Positions 22,520-31,558 of a DNA stretch of 48,021 nucleotides are shown piece by piece (position 1 is the first letter of the stretch; each line of letters opens with the position of its first letter). Source of the stretch: Escherichia phage vB_Eco_CWW26; the sequence record PQ900155.1; one strand, written 5' to 3'. A program made the translations under genes and the position numbers. The notes under the pieces are model-generated. The model made no database searches. It was not told where the DNA came from and saw nothing but the letters and a program-made list of their open reading frames with translations.

Positions 22520-23166
22520 GTTTAATTAACCTTCTGGTAAAGCGCGGTCCACAGCTTGGGTCGCTTCAGTTCGATGCCGTCCTGTCTGATGACCTTGATG
22601 CCAGCGTGGATATCGTGCAGTACCCCATTGAGACAGGTACGCCAATTGCAGACCACATTATCTATCAGCCTATTCGTTACACGATGACAGGTGCAGTATC
22701 GAACAACCCGTTGAAAGTTAGTATCACCGATTTCACCGGGGCATTGACAAATCTTGTCGATGACAATCCGTTCATTGCAGCGGGTGCCGGTCTGTTCGCG
22801 GGGTGGTTGAGCGGCTCAAATGAAACTCGCTCCAGTACGACACTGAATACTTTGCTCGATTTCATGTACTCCGGTCAGGTATTCACAGTGGATACGGGCG
22901 AAATTACGCTGAACAATATGGTCATTCAGCGTATTGGGCGCTCTAAAGACCCGGAGAATGAGAACGGATTGATATTTGTTGCTGAACTACAGCAGATTGT
23001 CACGCTTGACCGCGTGGCGAACGGTTCACAACCGGCACAATATCAGCTGAACAGTAACGACGTTTCCAGCACGTCCATATCAGGACTGATTGAGCGTGGT
23101 TATATCAATGTGAAGACAGCTGCAACGAATGTTGCCGACCAGGTTACGACACTTTTGGATTTGTAA
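22516..23166 (+). CDS. hypothetical tail / baseplate hub protein
   Basis: ORF track; last gene before the non-coding island. Confidence 0.4.
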   Translation: MSLINLLVKRGPQLGSLQFDAVLSDDLDASVDIVQYPIETGTPIADHIIYQPIRYTMTGAVSNNPLKVSITDFTGALTNLVDDNPFIAAGAGLFAGWLSGSNETRSSTTLNTLLDFMYSGQVFTVDTGEITLNNMVIQRIGRSKDPENENGLIFVAELQQIVTLDRVANGSQPAQYQLNSNDVSSTSISGLIERGYINVKTAATNVADQVTTLLDL

Positions 23167-23193
23167 AAAAAAAAAAGCCCCGTACTCCGGGGC
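23165..23193 (-). terminator. rho-independent terminator for leftward transcription
   Basis: Hairpin GCCCCG-TACTC-CGGGGC (23177-23193) preceded on + strand by A12, so on the minus strand it is followed by U12. Confidence 0.6.
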
Positions 23194-23677
23194 AAACATA
23201 CTGAAGCGCAATGGAGAGAGAGTATGGTTTACAGTTGTGGCGGCCGGTGCTGATCTCCGGCTTGTATATGGACTACCCGTCGTCGCCATGGTGAGCCATT
23301 ACCTCACCATCTAGCTGATAAGTTAGCGCATCAGCCCGCGCATTCACCACAACTCTAAACCATCGTCGCAACTGTTGTTATGTTTCACAACATTACCCCA
23401 GTCACTTACGGCTTACCCGTCAGCAAGATTGGACCACCTCCTCGGGGGTTACAACAGGAAAGAGCATTCAGTTGTACCTGCCAGTTGTGCCACTAGGAAA
23501 CGCTTTCGCAGACCGTTAAGCTCTTTGCAAGTTCTTTAATGCTCTTACCTGTTGTATTGGTCGAACCGCCACGGTGACCAACCGCATTCGTGCATGCCTG
23601 GCTACACATTCCGGCTACCCGCTGGTGCGAAGGAATAGGACACCCCGGACCGCTAAGACACATGTGCTATATGCCTG
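23194..23677 (-). ncRNA. putative leftward non-coding transcript (~480 nt)
   Basis: Region has no ORF of 60 aa or more; bracketed by a leftward promoter (23685-23713) and terminator; several hairpins. Class not recognised. Confidence 0.25.
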
Positions 23678-23684
23678 TGAATAA

Positions 23685-23713
23685 ATAATTACATTGTTTG
23701 ACGTGATTGTCAA
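23685..23713 (-). promoter_or_regulatory. sigma70-like promoter, variant palindromic -35 (leftward)
   Basis: Minus strand TTGACA-atcacgtcaaacaatgt-AATTAT; + strand palindrome TTGACGTGATTGTCAA 23698-23713; weak -10. Confidence 0.35.
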
Positions 23714-23748
23714 TAGTATACTTGACATTATTTTCACAGGAGGGCGAC

Positions 23749-24423
23749 ATGACCGACATTAACCAGCGCCGCTCGTTTTTACAGAACGTCACCAATGACA
23801 CGTTTTTCGAGAACATGAAGGACGTGTACACGTGCATCCCGGGTTACGTGCTGACGTTCGACCCGGACACACAGCGCGCACAAATTCAACTGGGAATCAC
23901 CCGGACTGATGATGTCGCTAAAACTACATTTGACCCGCCGCCCATCGTGGACGTTCCAGTAAGTTTCCCGGGCGATGACTTCGTACTGGAATTTGCCGTC
24001 AATCCGGGTTGTGAAGGTATGGTACATTTCAGTCAACGTTGCATTGATGGATGGAAGCAGACCGGCGGCATTGCTGCCAATCCAGTTAAACGCTTTCACC
24101 ACAAACAGGACGCAATGTTTGTACCTGGAATTCGTTCGCTCGATAACCTGATTGCAAGTTTTTCCAACGATGGGATACGTCTGCGTAATGCCGACGCGTC
24201 ACAGCACGTCTGGTTAAAGGGTGACGGTTCGTGCATAATGGCTAACGGGAACGGCAACGTTCAACTTCTTGCAAACGGCACGGTGAGTATCAATGGCGTG
24301 ACCATTGATAAAGACGGGAATATCACCGCTCTGAATTCTCTGGTGCTGGATGGCAAAGAACTCAACGGTCACACTCATGGCGGCGTTGCTTCCGGTGGTG
24401 CTAATACGGGGCCGAATAACTGA
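23749..24423 (+). CDS. baseplate spike / gpV-like protein (putative)
   Basis: C-terminal LDGKELNGHTHGGVASGGANTGP; ATG at 23749 with AGGAGGG SD. Confidence 0.45.
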   Translation: MTDINQRRSFLQNVTNDTFFENMKDVYTCIPGYVLTFDPDTQRAQIQLGITRTDDVAKTTFDPPPIVDVPVSFPGDDFVLEFAVNPGCEGMVHFSQRCIDGWKQTGGIAANPVKRFHHKQDAMFVPGIRSLDNLIASFSNDGIRLRNADASQHVWLKGDGSCIMANGNGNVQLLANGTVSINGVTIDKDGNITALNSLVLDGKELNGHTHGGVASGGANTGPNN

Positions 24424-24770
24424 TGACAGTACGTAAATTAGATGAAGATGGTGACATTGTTACCCAGGGTTCGATGTTCATCACTGAACAACTGGAAATA
24501 GAACAGACGATACGTACTCGTCTACGTCTGTTTTTGGGTGAGTATTTCCGGGATGTGACCGACGGCACACCGTGGTTTCAGGAGATACTCAACAAACAAA
24601 CTTCTATGGATGTCCGCGAAGCGCGTCTTCGTGAACGCATCGCTGGTACTCCGGGCGTCCAGCAGTTAACCAGTTTTAGTACGAACTTCGACATCGACAA
24701 CAAAACTTATACGGTCACCGCCAGCGTGTTGACCTCCTACGGATTATTAACGGTGACCGAGAATGGCTGA
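24423..24770 (+). CDS. baseplate gpW/gp25-like protein (putative)
   Basis: 115 aa; position between V-like and J-like genes; ATGA overlap. Confidence 0.4.
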   Translation: MTVRKLDEDGDIVTQGSMFITEQLEIEQTIRTRLRLFLGEYFRDVTDGTPWFQEILNKQTSMDVREARLRERIAGTPGVQQLTSFSTNFDIDNKTYTVTASVLTSYGLLTVTENG

Positions 24771-25971
24771 ATTAACCAGTACCGGCTATAGCGTAAAATC
24801 ACAGAATGACTGGTTCGACGAAGAAAAACAGTTATATCTGGATATTGACAGTAACTGGAATCTTGACCCGTCTACACCAGACGGGCTGAAGATAGCGCAC
24901 GATGCTGAAATCTTCTCCGCGCTCGATGAGGTGTTGCAACAGGCATACAACTCCAAAGACCCGAACAAAGCCAGCGGCTATGACCTCGATGTGATTTGTG
25001 CGCTGACAGGTACCGTCAGAAGTGAAGGTACCGCGTCAACTGTTACAGGGTTTGTGTTAACGGGTACACCTGGCACTCAGGTTCCCGCAGGTACACGCTT
25101 TGAATCATCTGTAACGGGTTATCGATTCACACTCGACCAGACGTGGACACTGGACAGTACAGGCACTGCAACGGTTGATATCACGTGTACTACGGTTGGC
25201 GAAATTGAAGCAGACGCCAACACCATTACAACCATTGTGGATACGGTTGCCGGTCTGGTGTCAGTCAATAACCCTACTCCCGCAACACCCGGTACATCCG
25301 TTGAATCAGATGGGTCATTACGTCTTAAACGAGCGACAGCGGTGGGATTACCCGGTAACAACCAGGTTGATTCAATGCTGGGTCAGTTGTTCAAAGTGGA
25401 CGGTGTACGTCGAGTACATGTCTATGAGAACGACGAAGCCACAACCGACAGCAATGGTCAGCCCGGTCACAGTATTGCACCCATTATCGATGGTGGTACA
25501 GACGACGACGTAGCAATGGCCATCTACCTTAAAAAAAATCCGGGCGTTACACTTTATCAGGCTGGCACACCAGTAACGGTCACTGTTACGTCGCCTACTT
25601 ACCCCACGATGACCAAAAATATCAAATTCAGTCGCCCTGTATATGTGGACATGGTCGTGACCATCGAAATCAAAGATGATGGTTCTCTACCGTCTCAGGC
25701 AACTCTCGAACCACTTATTCAGGACGCAATCATGGAATATGCCGCGGGTGGCCTGATTCCGACGGAGTACGGCTTTAAACCCGACGGGTTTGATATCGGT
25801 GAAACAGTCCCATACAGTTCACTTTACACACCCATTAACAAAGTCATTGGCTCATACGGCAATAGTTACGTCAACAGCATGACGTTGAATAGCGGTACTG
25901 CGAATGTTACCATTAAGTTTAACGAATTATCCCGCTGGACAACCTCAAACATCACGGTGACCATCGTATGA
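24763..25971 (+). CDS. baseplate J-like protein (putative)
   Basis: 402 aa; position and size typical of baseplate J. Confidence 0.45.
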   Translation: MAELTSTGYSVKSQNDWFDEEKQLYLDIDSNWNLDPSTPDGLKIAHDAEIFSALDEVLQQAYNSKDPNKASGYDLDVICALTGTVRSEGTASTVTGFVLTGTPGTQVPAGTRFESSVTGYRFTLDQTWTLDSTGTATVDITCTTVGEIEADANTITTIVDTVAGLVSVNNPTPATPGTSVESDGSLRLKRATAVGLPGNNQVDSMLGQLFKVDGVRRVHVYENDEATTDSNGQPGHSIAPIIDGGTDDDVAMAIYLKKNPGVTLYQAGTPVTVTVTSPTYPTMTKNIKFSRPVYVDMVVTIEIKDDGSLPSQATLEPLIQDAIMEYAAGGLIPTEYGFKPDGFDIGETVPYSSLYTPINKVIGSYGNSYVNSMTLNSGTANVTIKFNELSRWTTSNITVTIV

Positions 25972-28013
25972 CCATTATCAAACGCGCAGACCTGGGTCGA
26001 CCCTTAACTTGGGACGAACTGGATGATAACTTTCAGCAGGTTGATAATTTGACAGCCGCCGCATCAGCGGCTGTATCAAGTGCAGCTGCTTCAGCTACAG
26101 CCGCCGCAACCAGCGCCACTGCATCTGCAACCAGCGCAACAGATGCAGCTAACTCCGCAGCTAACGCAGCTGCGGCAATTGTGAGCGCTGTCAAGAGTAC
26201 CATCACATTCACGACTGGTGGTACTTTAAATAGTAATCTTGACCGTATCAGTGACGGTACTTATCTGTATTATTGGACTGGTGCGTACCCAGTAACTGTT
26301 GCTGCTGCTTCCACTGTAGAGAGTACGGGTGGGATTGCACCGGGGTTTTGGGCGGTTGACAATGACCAATTAATGAGGAACTTACTCACCACAGTGGGCG
26401 ATGGTACAGGTGCCGATTACATTCCGTTACCCGGAGGCGGTACCGTACAGGATGCGTTGTGGTACAAAACAGTGGAAATGTTCGGTGCGGTAGGGGACGG
26501 AGTAACTGACGATTCTTCAGCACTCCAGTCCGCATTGAATTGGGTATGTGGAGCGTCATACCGTAAATTAGTGTTCAGTTCTGGAAAAAAATACAGACAC
26601 TCTGTAGGTCTTACGGCCACTTTCGGCGCATCTTCTACCATATTTTGCCACATTGACATGTGCGGGGCGTTATACCCCGATGCAACTGTGGGTGATGCAC
26701 TCACCATTTCGGAAGCAACGTATTGCTTCTTCGACCTCAACATAGTTGGTGATGGGTATGATGTCTCCACCATGCCAGATTATTCTCTGCCTGACCCCGA
26801 TGGAGCACAGCAGGGCATCGTCGTGAATTCTTGTCGTGGATGTCGGGTGCATGTCAATGGTAACGGCTATGCTGGTCGAGTGCTGAGGACGAAGGGAACC
26901 GGTACCGTCAAGTTGTCATTCCTCACCATCCAGATCATAACTGGTGAGGGTTCGTGTGGGCAAGCCGCATATCTGGAAGCAACCTCGGATGCATTTGGTC
27001 GAATCTCGCACGCACAAACACAGTGGGATTATTACGGCAGCGTGCTTAAATCATTAACCGACGTTACGATTTCTTACTGGGAGTACGGTAATAAGAACTC
27101 TGCTGTACCAGCACTCTTGATTGATAATTGCGGCAGTTTGGATGGTTCAAACATTACCGGCGGGTCTACGTGGGACGCCGACACATCCACCACACTCAAG
27201 ATTGTAAATGGCCAAGGTATTCATTTCACACGAGTGCAGGTTGGCGAAGCGTATAATGGGTTGGTCATAGAAGGCGAAGGTACTGTTGACGATAAACCTA
27301 CTGTCGTCATTGATTATCTACTCAGCTATAAAACCAACACCGCTGTCACGCTCAATAATACAACAGGTGTTCAGATTAAATCGGGATTGATGGACAACAC
27401 ATATGACGGTGTCGTGTATCGGGGTAATATTCATAATTGTAGCGTGAATATCGATGGTCGTAACAATTTCACTAGGATGCATTTTGCCGGAACGGGCGTG
27501 AACATTGATTCCCTTCGGATTGGTGGTGGGCTGTATACCACGACTACAGCACCGTTCATTAGTATGGTGAACGCAACGGTTAACCAATTGTCGGTAGTGG
27601 ATACTGTCGTCAATACCGCAGGTCTGTACTTGAACATCCCAACAAGTAACCAGTGCGTCGTGCGTGGTGGGATGTGGTCTGGCTCTGCATCTGCCACACC
27701 GATACCTGCTCGCCCTAAGCACATAAGCGGTGTTGTCGGGGTCAAAACCGTATATCTCAGCGCTGCCGCAAGTTTCCCCATTGGGACAGTACAGGGGGAT
27801 ACTTTAACATTGACTCATGGTCTATGGGCAACCCCATATCAGTTGAATGTGACTCCTTTCAACGTTAGTTTGGGTACTACTTTTGCCAATGGTAATATCG
27901 TCGTCAAAACTTTATCATCTACTCAGGTTGTTCTAATGTACACGGGGGCCACTACTTTGACTGAGAGCATACCTCTCATCGTAGAGATGAGATCTGAATC
28001 GAGACTGGATTGA
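25968..28013 (+). CDS. tailspike / tail fiber with predicted beta-helix domain
   Basis: N-terminal Ala/Ser/Thr-rich region typical of fiber N-termini, then a long Gly/Asn/Thr-rich region suggesting a beta-helix. Confidence 0.5.
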   Translation: MTIIKRADLGRPLTWDELDDNFQQVDNLTAAASAAVSSAAASATAAATSATASATSATDAANSAANAAAAIVSAVKSTITFTTGGTLNSNLDRISDGTYLYYWTGAYPVTVAAASTVESTGGIAPGFWAVDNDQLMRNLLTTVGDGTGADYIPLPGGGTVQDALWYKTVEMFGAVGDGVTDDSSALQSALNWVCGASYRKLVFSSGKKYRHSVGLTATFGASSTIFCHIDMCGALYPDATVGDALTISEATYCFFDLNIVGDGYDVSTMPDYSLPDPDGAQQGIVVNSCRGCRVHVNGNGYAGRVLRTKGTGTVKLSFLTIQIITGEGSCGQAAYLEATSDAFGRISHAQTQWDYYGSVLKSLTDVTISYWEYGNKNSAVPALLIDNCGSLDGSNITGGSTWDADTSTTLKIVNGQGIHFTRVQVGEAYNGLVIEGEGTVDDKPTVVIDYLLSYKTNTAVTLNNTTGVQIKSGLMDNTYDGVVYRGNIHNCSVNIDGRNNFTRMHFAGTGVNIDSLRIGGGLYTTTTAPFISMVNATVNQLSVVDTVVNTAGLYLNIPTSNQCVVRGGMWSGSASATPIPARPKHISGVVGVKTVYLSAAASFPIGTVQGDTLTLTHGLWATPYQLNVTPFNVSLGTTFANGNIVVKTLSSTQVVLMYTGATTLTESIPLIVEMRSESRLD

Positions 28014-28726
28014 TGAACTTCTTCCCCGCTCCCTACTTCGTACCGCTGACAATTGTCAGCGGCTACGTCGCAAATGAGTCAGATGCTCCGAATCGCATCT
28101 ACGCTCAGTACCGTAACAAGCCAAAGGCTATCGCATGGTATAACATCACGTGTAGCCTGGCTACACAGATTGCAGACGTAGCTACAGCTGTGCGCATAAT
28201 GTATGCGATTGATTATGCACAGGGTGAACAGCTCGACGTTATCGGACGCATTGTGGTGATACCCCGGGATTTTATGGGTGAAGTCACGATGAAAACAGCG
28301 ATGTGTGCCAGTGATGTTAATGGTCCGGCTGAATTCGGTGACACTGCTGCGATGTGTAGTGTACCATCGATTGACCAGTCGATGATGATGTCGGATAACT
28401 TATATCGCCTGGCAATTAAATCTAAGATTTTAAAAAATAACTCATACTCGACCATTGAGGACATTATTAATGGGTTGAATTTCCTGTTACCAAACGCACG
28501 GGCCACCCGTCTGGTCGATGGTGAGGACATGAGTTTCTCCGTCGAATTTTACGGACAAATCACAGACCTTGAACGGTGGGCGCTCGTTAATGCGTCTTTC
28601 ATTCCGAAGCCGCAGGGGGTAAAATTCAATGGTTTCCTTGAGGCTTACGATTATGTACAGGCAGGCGATTCATCAATGCAATTTGGTGACTCACTGGCGC
28701 AAGCGACCGGATTTATAGGAGTTTGA
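28010..28726 (+). CDS. hypothetical tail fiber-associated protein (238 aa)
   Basis: ORF track; between tailspike and Gly-rich fiber. Confidence 0.4.
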   Translation: MMNFFPAPYFVPLTIVSGYVANESDAPNRIYAQYRNKPKAIAWYNITCSLATQIADVATAVRIMYAIDYAQGEQLDVIGRIVVIPRDFMGEVTMKTAMCASDVNGPAEFGDTAAMCSVPSIDQSMMMSDNLYRLAIKSKILKNNSYSTIEDIINGLNFLLPNARATRLVDGEDMSFSVEFYGQITDLERWALVNASFIPKPQGVKFNGFLEAYDYVQAGDSSMQFGDSLAQATGFIGV

Positions 28727-28729
28727 ATA

Positions 28730-29587
28730 ATGGCTTTAGACCGCAGCAACCGTTACCCGGGAAGGTTTGAGAATCCCACAACTGTATCACCCCAGGGAGC
28801 ATTTAAAAACCGCACATCACCAACGGCGGAAGATGGTTCGTATTTCGAGGCTGACTGGGCCAATGACTGGGATGGTTTTTTTGCTCGCATCCTCAACGTG
28901 GCGGGTGTTACGCCAAATGGAACCGTCGATAACGGTACGTCGAGCCAGCTTTACGACGCACTCATGACTGCCACACCGGGTCGGTTGTTGAATGTGCGTA
29001 CACTCACATCGTCTGGGATTTATACCCCGACAACAGGTACGAAGGCCATTAAGGTGACTCTCACCGGTGGTGGTGGCGGTGGTGGTGGTTGTCAGGCAAC
29101 TAGTACATCCGATACGTTCTCTGGTGCCGGTGGTGGCGCAGGTGGGACTGTTGTCGCCTGGATTACTTCCCCAGCGTCGTCATACTCTGTAACGATTGGT
29201 GCTGGTGGTGCCGGCGGCGTGGGTGCAAACGCGGGTTCTGCTGGTGGAAACAGTGTATTCGGCACACTAACAGCGGGTGGTGGTGGTGGTGGTCTGAAAT
29301 CATCTGTTACGTCCACGCCAGGTGGTTTGAGTGGTACAGCAACCGGCGGCCTAATAAACATTCGTGGTGGTGATGGTAGTGATGGTCAGAACGGTACGTA
29401 TTTCGTCACCGGTAACGGTGGGTCATCCTTCTGGGGCGGTGGCGGTCGTGCCGGTGCGTTAGGTGGGGTTACCGGGAAAGCCCCTGGTAGTGGTGGCGGC
29501 GGTGCATATGATGTTGGTGTGAGTGGTACATCATACACCGGTGGAGCGGGTGCTGCCGGTATCGTAATGATTGAGGAATACTCATAA
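28730..29587 (+). CDS. Gly-rich tail fiber protein
   Basis: Glycine runs (TGGGGGGGGC, GAGGGAGG, GGGGGGL) after a fiber-like N-terminus. Confidence 0.5.
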   Translation: MALDRSNRYPGRFENPTTVSPQGAFKNRTSPTAEDGSYFEADWANDWDGFFARILNVAGVTPNGTVDNGTSSQLYDALMTATPGRLLNVRTLTSSGIYTPTTGTKAIKVTLTGGGGGGGGCQATSTSDTFSGAGGGAGGTVVAWITSPASSYSVTIGAGGAGGVGANAGSAGGNSVFGTLTAGGGGGGLKSSVTSTPGGLSGTATGGLINIRGGDGSDGQNGTYFVTGNGGSSFWGGGGRAGALGGVTGKAPGSGGGGAYDVGVSGTSYTGGAGAAGIVMIEEYS

Positions 29588-29818
29588 GGTTTTACAACCT
29601 TCCCACCAGTTTTGCCACCGGGACACTCTGTCCCGGTCGGACATCAGAACTTCCCCGTTATGTGGAATTACCGTAGCGGCTCGTTCAGGGTCGCCATTAA
29701 TCGTCCACAATTCACCACTCGGCGTAAGCAGGTCGTTAGATGGCGGCGGACATTTGCGTACTTCCTGAGTACACGCGGCTAAAGTAAGTACAGATATCAG
29801 CAGGATAAGTTTTTTCAT
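29582..29818 (-). CDS. o-spanin (Rz1-like outer-membrane lipoprotein)
   Basis: Signal peptide with lipobox LTLAAC; proline-rich mature part; ATGA overlap with i-spanin. Confidence 0.6.
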   Translation of the reverse strand: MKKLILLISVLTLAACTQEVRKCPPPSNDLLTPSGELWTINGDPERAATVIPHNGEVLMSDRDRVSRWQNWWEGCKTL

Positions 29819-30129
29819 TTTACAGTCGCATCATACAGGTCGAGGATACCGCTTTCTTTGACACACTGAGCGGTGGCGGAGTCTTTGATTCGGTCACGGT
29901 AGATGGCGACTTTTTCAACGACTTTTTTGGAACGAGCTTCTTTCAGTTCCTGTTGCTTTTTCTGCAATTCCACATCGGAAGCATTGAGTTTTTCTTGTAG
30001 CGCATTACGGGCTTCAACGACTGTCTTATATTCTTTGAAATCGTCCAACTTGACCGACTGCTTCCCTTGTGAATATCCCCACCAGAACGCCAGCGCAAGC
30101 AACACAAGTGCTGGTATAATTGTGCGCAT
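29815..30129 (-). CDS. i-spanin (Rz-like)
   Basis: N-terminal TM helix IIPALVLLALAFWWGY, then a charged coiled-coil region; start overlaps endolysin stop. Confidence 0.6.
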   Translation of the reverse strand: MRTIIPALVLLALAFWWGYSQGKQSVKLDDFKEYKTVVEARNALQEKLNASDVELQKKQQELKEARSKKVVEKVAIYRDRIKDSATAQCVKESGILDLYDATVK

Positions 30130-30671
30130 CATTTCTCCCCCAGTGTATACAGGCACAAATACTCTTCCTGCTCCCGACGAATTGGCTGCCCGGAACAGTT
30201 GTTGCTTTTGATACGGCAGTCTTTACCGCCATCAAAAACCCAACGTGGAATCTGTTTACACGCATTCTTCCAGTCGCCTTTTTGCAGTAACTTAAAGAAT
30301 GTTGACCCCTTACATTTGGTAGGTCCAATGTTGTACGGGCAGAACGATGCAATACCGACCTGTTGCACCGGGTTCAGTTTTACCGGAATATTCTCACGTA
30401 CCCATTCGAGTGACTTCTGCGCTTCCTTATCGTTCAGAAGGTCACATTGCTTTTCGGTAAGTCGCATACCCTTTGTGACTGGTTTACCATCAATGCGTGT
30501 GATTCCACGACAGATGGTCCAGATACCTTTACCGTCCCGGTACGCAGTGGTGCGGTTACCTTCCTTCTCGTTCAGGAACTGGTTGAACAGGTCCGTCTGC
30601 GTGACTACTCCCCCCCCTAATGCAAATACTGCCAGGAGTGCCGTCATTTGCTTACTTAAAGGATTTTTCAT
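30129..30671 (-). CDS. SAR endolysin (GH24 / T4-lysozyme-like)
   Basis: Catalytic signature EKEGNRTTAYRDGKGIWTICRGI; N-terminal Gly/Ala-rich weakly hydrophobic segment TALLAVFALGGGVV typical of a signal-anchor-release domain. Confidence 0.7.
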   Translation of the reverse strand: MKNPLSKQMTALLAVFALGGGVVTQTDLFNQFLNEKEGNRTTAYRDGKGIWTICRGITRIDGKPVTKGMRLTEKQCDLLNDKEAQKSLEWVRENIPVKLNPVQQVGIASFCPYNIGPTKCKGSTFFKLLQKGDWKNACKQIPRWVFDGGKDCRIKSNNCSGQPIRREQEEYLCLYTLGEK

Positions 30672-30725
30672 TTTGTTACACTCGTTGTACAATTAAGCTT
30701 AATCCTAACATATAAAGGCGACAAA

Positions 30726-30836
30726 ATGTACAAGACTAAACCACGTAAAGCAGGTGACGCCGGTGGGACATGTGTTAAACCCCGTGGTAAAACAGGTGAC
30801 GCGGGCGGTTCCAAAGTAAAACGCCGGACCAAATAA
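30726..30836 (+). CDS. small basic Gly-rich peptide (36 aa, putative)
   Basis: Hand-translated MYKTKPRKAGDAGGTCVKPRGKTGDAGGSKVKRRTK with internal repeat K(A/T)GDAGG; weak SD. Confidence 0.2.
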   Translation: MYKTKPRKAGDAGGTCVKPRGKTGDAGGSKVKRRTK

Positions 30837-30839
30837 ACA

Positions 30840-31250
30840 ATGTACACCTTCCTGATTGCCTCGCTAATCGTCAGACCCCGGAGAGCCTCGTTTCTCTTCG
30901 TGCTGGTGGCAACTCTCTTTCAGGAGTTATGTGGTAATATGGATGGTTCGATTTATTTTTTCCTCGCCGCATTTTGTGATTTCATCGTAGCCGGTGTTCT
31001 GTACCATTTTGGAACATCCCGAAAGTCTCTCGACATGATGCTCATCAGCATTGTTTCCATGTCGATCAATCTGACAGGCTGGCTCCTGTGGTTTTTCTAT
31101 CAACCGCTCGATGTCTATGTGGCAATGTTCACGGTGCTGTACTGTGCGGCAATCCTCACGATACTGAAAAAGGATAGTGACGATGCTGGAGGTATTGCGG
31201 TTCATATCGACAACTCTGGTCATCATCCTTATGCTGGCGCAGGTCGTTGA
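30840..31250 (+). CDS. integral membrane protein (3-4 TM; holin or exclusion candidate)
   Basis: Several hydrophobic helices; divergent from the lysis cassette. Confidence 0.4.
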   Translation: MYTFLIASLIVRPRRASFLFVLVATLFQELCGNMDGSIYFFLAAFCDFIVAGVLYHFGTSRKSLDMMLISIVSMSINLTGWLLWFFYQPLDVYVAMFTVLYCAAILTILKKDSDDAGGIAVHIDNSGHHPYAGAGR

Positions 31251-31276
31251 GTGGTATATCAAAGCGAGAAAACATT

Positions 31277-31558
31277 ATGAGCTTTACCGGAAACACACAA
31301 GCCGGAACGGTAGTAGCAAGCGGAACGACGGTAACGGGTCTAATGACTAAGTACGGTATCACCCCGGAAACCATCGGTATCTTCGCAACATTAGTGGGTA
31401 TCGTACTTTCTCTGGTGATGATTTACGGTCACATCAAGCGTATCAGAAATGAATCGGCGGAACGCAAGGAAAAGGAAGCCATTGCGAGAATTGAAAAGGA
31501 AAAGGCAGAGATTGAACTTGCTGAAATGCGCCGAAGGATGAACAACCCGGCGCAGTGA
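31277..31558 (+). CDS. holin-like protein (one TM helix, charged C-terminal tail)
   Basis: TM IGIFATLVGIVLSLVMIYG followed by KRIRNESAERKEKEAIARIEKEKAEIELAEMRRR; start ambiguous (TTG 31247 or ATG 31277). Confidence 0.4.
   Translation: MSFTGNTQAGTVVASGTTVTGLMTKYGITPETIGIFATLVGIVLSLVMIYGHIKRIRNESAERKEKEAIARIEKEKAEIELAEMRRRMNNPAQ

Follow-up and report, generated by a model that had tools for sequence, protein, structure and literature searches.

The closest described counterparts of the host-recognition module considered here, which occupies positions 25968-29587 of a 48,021-nucleotide stretch of Escherichia phage vB_Eco_CWW26 (PQ900155.1; the whole stretch is called the window), are the minimal baseplates of Vibrio phage XM1 and cyanophage Pam3 and the adsorption genes of Klebsiella phage MMNM. 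The XM1 baseplate is built of (gp16)2-gp17 wedges and 12 gp18 spikes (PMC10457771; PDB 7kh1), and that of Pam3 of a gp22/gp23 wedge and the fibre gp24, which is served by the chaperone gp25 (PMC9942802, PMC9608196; PDB 7ypx, 7yfw, 7yfz). Cryo-electron microscopy of both has shown a protein of the gp17/gp23 type joining two J-like subunits in a wedge heterotriplex and offering two docking regions for receptor-binding proteins (RBPs), which amounts to 12 RBP trimers per baseplate (PMC10457771, PMC9942802). MMNM (Jedunavirus; PMC11633184) encodes the depolymerase MMNM_24, the wedge protein MMNM_26 and the tail fibre MMNM_27, of which wedge and fibre determine host range in a two-step recognition of capsule and then lipopolysaccharide (LPS). 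MMNM_24 degrades the K2 capsule, the capsule is dispensable and the O-antigen (waaL) is essential; in experimental evolution, 31 of the 37 host-range mutations fell in the J, wedge and fibre proteins (PMC11633184). A 2026 preprint describes 'pam3 fiber-like' adhesins paired with a tailspike depolymerase in the subfamily Jameshumphriesvirinae (10.64898/2026.05.12.724579).

Over its whole length the module is 100% identical to Escherichia phage ZCEC13 (ON086804.1 / NC_071140.1), under whose name we discuss it; current NCBI taxonomy places ZCEC13 in Zewailvirus, subfamily Jameshumphriesvirinae, beside Jedunavirus and Peatvirus, while the sequence records still say Jedunavirus. We describe the gene structure, homologies and mosaic boundaries of the module and, at the level of prediction, its folds, and we propose with a probability of about 0.78 that it constitutes a two-step recognition device, in which a tailspike and a short glycine-rich adhesin are carried by a DUF2612 wedge protein within a minimal baseplate operon of the Pam3/XM1 type (23707-29587). 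The three genes and their parts are the following:

25968-28013, plus strand: tailspike gp51, 681 aa
25968-26186, plus strand: gp51 residues 1-73, putative docking peptide, then Ala/Ser/Thr-rich helix
26193-26357, plus strand: gp51 residues 76-130, small beta domain of the CBA120 TSP1 N-terminal type
26358-26462, plus strand: gp51 residues 131-165, flexible linker (predicted local distance difference test score, pLDDT, 46-52) and recombination junction from jedunavirus-type anchor to Menlow-type module
26463-27692, plus strand: gp51 residues 166-575, predicted right-handed parallel beta-helix, putative polysaccharide-binding/cleaving body
27720-28010, plus strand: gp51 residues 585-681, predicted C-terminal beta-sandwich of carbohydrate-binding or trimer-stabilising type
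28010-28726, plus strand: gp52, 238 aa from TTG; 237 aa from the ATG at 28013, which is the RefSeq start
28013-28726, plus strand: gp52 as DUF2612 baseplate wedge protein and putative RBP-carrying adaptor (PF11041, expectation value E 4.9e-24; phrog_587, E 7.7e-65)
28730-29587, plus strand: fibre gp53, 285 aa
28730-28978, plus strand: gp53 residues 1-83, conserved putative baseplate-attachment domain
28979-29584, plus strand: gp53 residues 84-285, TNF-like and glycine-rich putative receptor-binding domain (Pam3 gp24 / gp38-type)

The three open reading frames (ORFs) are real genes and not chance ORFs, because they have strong homologues and family matches (Tail_spike_N, DUF2612 and Gly_rich_2, with PHROG matches down to E 1e-73); the NCBIfam search returned no family for gp51, gp52 or gp53. 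The ZCEC13 record labels them tail spike/tail protein, structural protein and tail fiber protein, and the module consists of ordinary, already annotated host-recognition genes in an arrangement known from Klebsiella-phage relatives, partly by experiment. An earlier note, made from the letters of the window alone, had placed ORFs of 681, 238 and 285 aa at exactly these coordinates, had ascribed an Ala-rich N-terminus and a beta-helix-like body to the first and poly-Gly tracts to the last, and had taken these two for distinct receptor-binding-type proteins of a host-range module rather than a novel system. The descriptions are borne out by the composition, models and family matches given below, and the interpretation is supported; the same arrangement has already been described in MMNM (PMC11633184).

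The architecture of gp51 combines a lineage-conserved N-terminal attachment module with an exchangeable body. Its first ~27 residues, MTIIKRADLGRPLTWDELDDNFQQVD, recur at 96-100% identity in many otherwise unrelated tailspikes (matches of 4% coverage), and this invariance fits a docking peptide, the role put forward for the conserved tailspike N-terminus in the JD001 group by Latka et al. 2019 (PMC6872550). In the AlphaFold2 model (30 homologues, mean pLDDT 85) residues 15-73 form one long helix, with 52% Ala and 83% Ala, Ser and Thr in residues 28-75, which presumably is a trimeric coiled coil. The small beta domain that follows is recognized by PF18668 Tail_spike_N (CBA120-type) over residues 73-129 (E 1.7e-11, 44.5 bits against a cut-off of 25) and matches 4oj5 in sequence (E 2e-13). 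Residues 166-575 are modelled as a long series of short strands with pLDDT mostly above 90, the central right-handed parallel beta-helix that marks tailspike depolymerases, and residues 585-675 again as strands, at pLDDT ~90, within a C-terminus conserved with the Menlow tailspike. The top Foldseek matches of the model in the PDB are only phage tailspikes and capsule lyases, namely CBA120 TSP1 and TSP3, Sf6, HK620, LKA1 gp49, AP22 gp54 and the K1 lyase. Across 15 homologues of the body, eight acidic positions are conserved (D262, D276, E327, D354, D365, E372, D476 and D545), and the PHROG matches of gp51, which lie mostly in its N-terminal 200 residues, belong to tail, tail-fibre and tailspike families.

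Sequence comparison indicates that gp51 is a chimera of a jedunavirus-type anchor and a Menlow-type catalytic module. Over residues 1-137 gp51 and the tailspike of Klebsiella phage BUCT_49532 are nearly identical, a resemblance that collapses beyond about residue 137; residues 159-680 align without gaps and at 64% identity with residues 438-959 of the tailspike of Klebsiella phage Menlow (Taipeivirus; AUG87748.1). This likeness covers 522 residues and takes in the whole beta-helix and the C-terminal domain, whereas the N-terminal 437 residues of the Menlow protein, an Ackermannviridae branching anchor, are wholly different from gp51. The junction coincides with the low-pLDDT linker. All phages in INPHARED that have a Menlow-type tailspike body are Klebsiella phages, and ZCEC13 is the only Escherichia-labelled member of a Klebsiella-phage subfamily, yet has a tailspike body of the Klebsiella-phage type. 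A plausible precedent, by analogy, is E. coli HS, which relatives of Klebsiella phages infect via a Klebsiella-like K47 group 1 capsule (bioRxiv 10.64898/2026.05.19.726188). On the substrate of the Menlow-type module, the main text and supplements of DepoCatalog hold no entries (Menlow, AUG87748, SU552A, P929), and the literature searched yielded no characterisation of the Menlow tailspike substrate.

The second RBP, gp53, is best regarded, on its sequence and model, as a short adhesin of the Pam3 gp24 kind and not as a long fibre. Glycine makes up 25% of the protein and 34% of residues 100-285, with five runs of at least three: G8 (113-120), G3, G6 (183-188), G4 and G4. Gly_rich_2 (PF21722) matches residues 97-282 (E 3.3e-14, 53.9 bits against a cut-off of 24.3) and Pam3 gp24 is found by sequence at E 1.8e-7. 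The model, with a pLDDT of 81 that is at least 90 through most of residues 84-285, has the Pam3 fibre as its best Foldseek match (7ypx_A, E 2.7e-10, template modelling scores 0.58/0.65, 27% identity), followed by Bxb1 tail-tip chains and then weakly by ALK glycine-rich domains. The Pam3 fibre is of about the same size (280-289 aa against 285), likewise joins an N-terminal attachment part to a TNF-like/Gly-rich domain, and, like gp53, is encoded after a gp23-like wedge gene. Since Pam3 gp24 is a torch-shaped trimer ~100 Å long (PMC9942802, PMC9608196), the word 'fibre' means a short adhesin when applied to gp53. Through the literature on Pam3 gp24 the likeness extends to gp38 of Salmonella phage S16 and of the T2 type (PDB 6F45), in which Gly-rich motifs similarly form a polyglycine-type lattice displaying variable loops; gp38, however, caps the tip of the long gp37 fibre, whereas gp53 would join the baseplate directly, and 6F45 is not among the Foldseek matches of gp53.

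The N-domain of gp53 (residues 1-83), modelled with helices at 37-57 and 73-81 at a pLDDT of only 51-64, is 80-98% identical across jedunavirus-like proteins whatever the type of their C-domain; with the N-terminal part of Vibrio myophage fibres it shares 40-65% identity. Identity of the C-domain among jedunavirus-like proteins runs from 92% down to 37%, and E. coli P2-like and Mu-like prophage fibres share it at 64-66% while their N-termini are unrelated; in the tail modules of these prophages the proteins concerned occupy the fibre slot, as the fibre tip. Such pairing of a conserved N-domain with a swapped C-domain is, to judge from these comparisons, the signature of a receptor-binding protein. 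In an alignment of 24 homologues the glycines at 113-120, 132-138, 157-160, 184-185, 213-219, 236-239, 253-258 and 272-277 are invariant and substitutions cluster between these motifs, as in gp38-type adhesins. Klebsiella jedunaviruses pair fibres of this type (83-92% identity) with tailspike bodies that differ. As a side observation, the 308-aa Gly_rich_2 proteins of Mu-like E. coli prophages (loci L007, L008 and L009, 5001-5927), which sit after gp47/gp48 and before Caudo_TAP, widely go by the name 'carbohydrate kinase' in NCBI records and are evidently misannotated tail-fibre tips.

The gene between the two RBP genes encodes the protein that would hold them. PF11041 (DUF2612) scores 85.7 bits for gp52 against a cut-off of 23.5, and sequence matches in the PDB are XM1 gp17 (7kh1, E 1.6e-6 over residues 30-206) and gp89 of 9zd7 (E 3.2e-7), with a weak match to Pam3 gp23 (E 0.77); gp52 is thus the analogue of T4 gp7, XM1 gp17 and Pam3 gp23. 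Its gene immediately precedes that of the fibre and is separated from the J gene by the inserted tailspike gene. These homologies indicate that gp52 is part of the adsorption apparatus and not an unrelated spacer, because its counterpart in XM1 and Pam3 carries the RBP trimers in the wedge; mutations in gp52-type proteins alter host range in MMNM (PMC11633184) and in Pseudomonas phage K8. The view of the module is accordingly corrected in two respects, the middle ORF to a wedge adaptor and the 'fibre' to a short Pam3-type adhesin. The cysteines of gp52 are Cys47, Cys98 and Cys115, and its loop about 90-118, with the latter two, aligns with the RBP-binding loop of XM1 gp17 (80-106) and the Cys-rich fibre-binding loop of Pam3 gp23; neither gp51 nor gp53 offers an N-terminal Cys that could pair with Cys98 or Cys115.

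Compared with the systems outlined above, ZCEC13 shares with XM1 the minimal baseplate gene order and a wedge protein of the kind that has two RBP docking regions. In XM1 one tailspike-like RBP, gp18, fills both sites and a separate tailspike sits on the neck, whereas the baseplate operon of ZCEC13 encodes two different RBPs; Pam3 has no tailspike at all. MMNM, of the same subfamily, has the same set of J protein, tailspike, DUF2612 wedge and Pam3-like fibre and the same three-part tailspike architecture. It differs in having one extra small gene between the tailspike and wedge genes and in infecting Klebsiella, Escherichia being the listed host of ZCEC13; the ZCEC13 tailspike body has no sequence kinship to the K2 depolymerase MMNM_24 and resembles the Menlow tailspike instead. 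In more distant phages the order J-DUF2612-fibre is contiguous (Vibrio phages vB_VchM-138 and 49E33-1 and Iodobacter phage phiPLPE). vB_VchM-138 and phiPLPE keep this trio and the conserved fibre N-terminus and have no tailspike, and 49E33-1 has a beta-helix tailspike gene (locus L005, 744-2813) between its gp25-like gene and J, in contrast to the position between J and the DUF2612 gene in ZCEC13; a shared docking peptide was sought, and the N-termini of the 49E33-1 tailspike and gp51 have no significant similarity. Because the trio is kept without a tailspike in relatives, or with the tailspike inserted elsewhere, gene order points to the fibre as the ancestral RBP of this minimal-myophage lineage and to the tailspike as an accessory acquisition, which looks like an independent insertion in this lineage.

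How would the two proteins act in succession? We propose that gp51 is a trimeric tailspike anchored to the virion by its invariant N-terminal peptide and Ala-rich coiled coil, and that its beta-helix body would bind and most likely cleave a polysaccharide of the cell surface (capsule or O-antigen-type glycan); on the E. coli host, a Klebsiella-like group 1 capsule is a plausible target. Cleavage would let the particle pass through the glycan layer. gp52 would complete the (J)2-wedge heterotriplex and supply the peripheral docking sites, and gp53, a short trimeric adhesin, would plug its conserved N-domain into gp52. Variable loops displayed on the Gly-rich lattice of gp53 would then bind LPS or an outer-membrane protein as the second receptor, close to the membrane, and this engagement would be relayed via gp52 and J to sheath contraction. 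We infer the enzymatic activity, the receptor identities, the stoichiometry and the docking site of each RBP in ZCEC13; depolymerase activity, virion location, O-antigen dependence and host-range mutations in fibre and wedge come from relatives (MMNM, PMC11633184).

A number of observations weigh against this proposal. The literature searched cites ZCEC13 only as a relative, and no experiment on it was found. Of the pectate-lyase-type fold that the earlier note had proposed to look for in gp51, the beta-helix is indeed predicted, while a family match above cut-off is absent: PF12708 stays below threshold (23.5 bits against a cut-off of 27) and covers only residues 169-197 (29 residues), and PF13229 does not match. 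The catalytic module has no characterised homologue, and the fold, as modelled, cannot separate a hydrolase, a lyase and a pure binder; since its matches mix lyases, an epimerase and hydrolases, a catalytic mechanism is not assignable. The models of gp51 and gp53 are monomers, with trimerisation and docking outside their scope. In MMNM, immunogold labelling placed the tailspike at the baseplate and, unexpectedly, at the collar/neck (PMC11633184). The likeness to Pam3 also has its limits. The Pam3 fibre is disulfide-linked via Cys28, which the ZCEC13 fibre does not have, and going by sequence such anchoring would not be possible in ZCEC13, because the sole Cys of gp53 is residue 121, inside the Gly-rich domain, and gp51 has no Cys before residue 194. 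Pam3 encodes the Tfa-like chaperone gp25 downstream, and in Pam3, the Vibrio relatives and the E. coli prophages with the 64-66%-identical Gly-rich domain the chaperone gene comes right after the fibre gene. No Tfa-type gene adjoins gp53, and tblastn and phmmer detected no Tfa/Caudo_TAP chaperone in the whole genome (best E 0.35), a search that used four queries drawn from E. coli prophages and Vibrio relatives, detects homologues only and leaves remote or non-homologous chaperones possible. The missing chaperone appears to be a small oddity of ZCEC13.

Could one of the two proteins be something other than an adhesin? In the anchor-branch model that Latka et al. 2019 put forward for phages of the JD001 group (PMC6872550), the 285-aa protein would be a truncated, non-receptor-binding 'first RBP' that serves only as the anchor of the depolymerase, leaving the tailspike as sole adhesin; the study models JD001 YP_007392884.1 (285 aa; 87% identity with gp53) as a non-enzymatic 'anchor' and proposes attachment of the depolymerase via its conserved ~70-aa N-terminus. 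We consider this improbable for ZCEC13, given that gp53 is modelled with a fold like that of the Pam3 fibre, in which the distal Gly-rich domain is exposed, that its C-domain belongs to the type found at the distal tip of E. coli prophage fibres, and that this domain is swapped among close relatives while the N-domain is kept, a pattern unexpected for a pure anchor. Loop mutations in MMNM_27 moreover change host range (PMC11633184), and relatives without any tailspike retain the J-DUF2612-fibre set. It is equally improbable that gp51 acts as a lectin-like binder or a deacetylase-type modifier, attaching reversibly without cleaving the backbone. The fold as modelled does not separate such a binder from an enzyme, but phage proteins with an N-terminal anchor, a beta-helix and a C-terminal domain are overwhelmingly depolymerases, the MMNM protein at the orthologous position is one by experiment (PMC11633184), and homologues at 34-69% identity retain several of the acidic residues.

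A question of location remains between our proposal and a tailspike that sits mainly at the neck or collar, as does XM1 gp40, and clears capsule or orients the particle, with gp53 as the sole baseplate adhesin. The long N-terminal helix of the gp51 model recalls the long coiled coil of the XM1 neck tailspike (PMC10457771), and the MMNM depolymerase was labelled at collar and baseplate both (PMC11633184). The second of these results shows baseplate labelling as well, the gp51 gene lies within the coupled baseplate operon between the J and wedge genes, and gp51 has no detectable sequence similarity to XM1 gp40; we therefore give the neck location little credence.

The two-step device on the baseplate leads to a further and more tentative set of ideas, which taken together we think rather unlikely to hold in full: heterotypic docking sites on gp52, folding of gp53 without a Tfa-type chaperone, and a host label for which the tailspike swap alone would account. 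Six tailspikes may occupy one gp52 site and six Gly-rich adhesins the other in ZCEC13 and its subfamily, in contrast to the 12 identical spikes of XM1 (PMC10457771) and the 12 identical fibres of Pam3 (PMC9942802), and gp53 may fold without any Tfa-type chaperone. The ZCEC13 fibre is 92% identical to Klebsiella-phage fibres while the tailspike body is replaced. If these ideas are true, the change of host label from Klebsiella to Escherichia would be due to the tailspike swap alone, and the fibre would read a receptor common to both genera. The practical value of the module is modest and it is no new kind of system; for engineering it offers domain borders, with the gp51 anchor at 1-137, its junction at about 138-158, and the fibre junction at G84-R85.

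The wider operon runs in the order spike, gp25-like, J, tailspike, wedge, fibre and is translationally coupled, its junctions being TGATG and ATGA overlaps and one 3-nt gap. Upstream of the module it comprises:

23707-24423, plus strand: gpV-like central baseplate spike (Pfam N-terminal spike domain, E 5.4e-23; gpV Apex motif; RefSeq 'baseplate spike'), which opens the coupled operon
24423-24770, plus strand: gp25-like sheath-initiator / wedge subunit (phrog_120 baseplate wedge subunit, E 2.4e-33), overlapping the spike gene by 1 nt
24763-25971, plus strand: baseplate J-like wedge protein gp50 (PF04865, E 4e-16; phrog_6, E 2.3e-65), with an ATGA overlap at the tailspike start; analogue of T4 gp6, XM1 gp16 and Pam3 gp22

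The lysis genes 3' of the fibre gene lie on the opposite strand and are convergent. At 29582-29587 the 3' end of the fibre gene overlaps that of the o-spanin (Rz1-like) gene, which converges on it, by 6 nt, and this leaves no space for an intergenic terminator. A promoter and terminator scan of 23000-31500 returned counts at chance level, and the operon boundaries are therefore not refined. A strong terminator-like GC hairpin followed by T10 occurs on the minus strand at 23177-23193, in the gene-poor gap (~540 bp) between gp44 and the baseplate spike gene, within a region whose count of terminator-like elements is at chance level.

The annotation of ZCEC13 differs between records, with 116 coding sequences in GenBank ON086804.1 against 88 in RefSeq; the former contains many small overlapping ORFs whose names are implausible, 'tetracycline resistance leader peptide' and 'NADH-ubiquinone oxidoreductase chain 3' among them. 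The tailspike start at 25935 in the GenBank record was rejected, the codon there being CTG and the homologues all beginning MTIIKRADLG. Among the E. coli prophages that entered the comparison, a P2-like tail module (locus L006, 1700-2500) has a TIR_2 (PF13676) gene between its gpS-like and gpV-like genes, which looks like a defence-type moron, and a Mu-like prophage (locus L007, 6604-7671) has an Acyl_transf_3 gene on the opposite strand just 3' of its fibre and chaperone genes, possibly an O-antigen-modifying moron.

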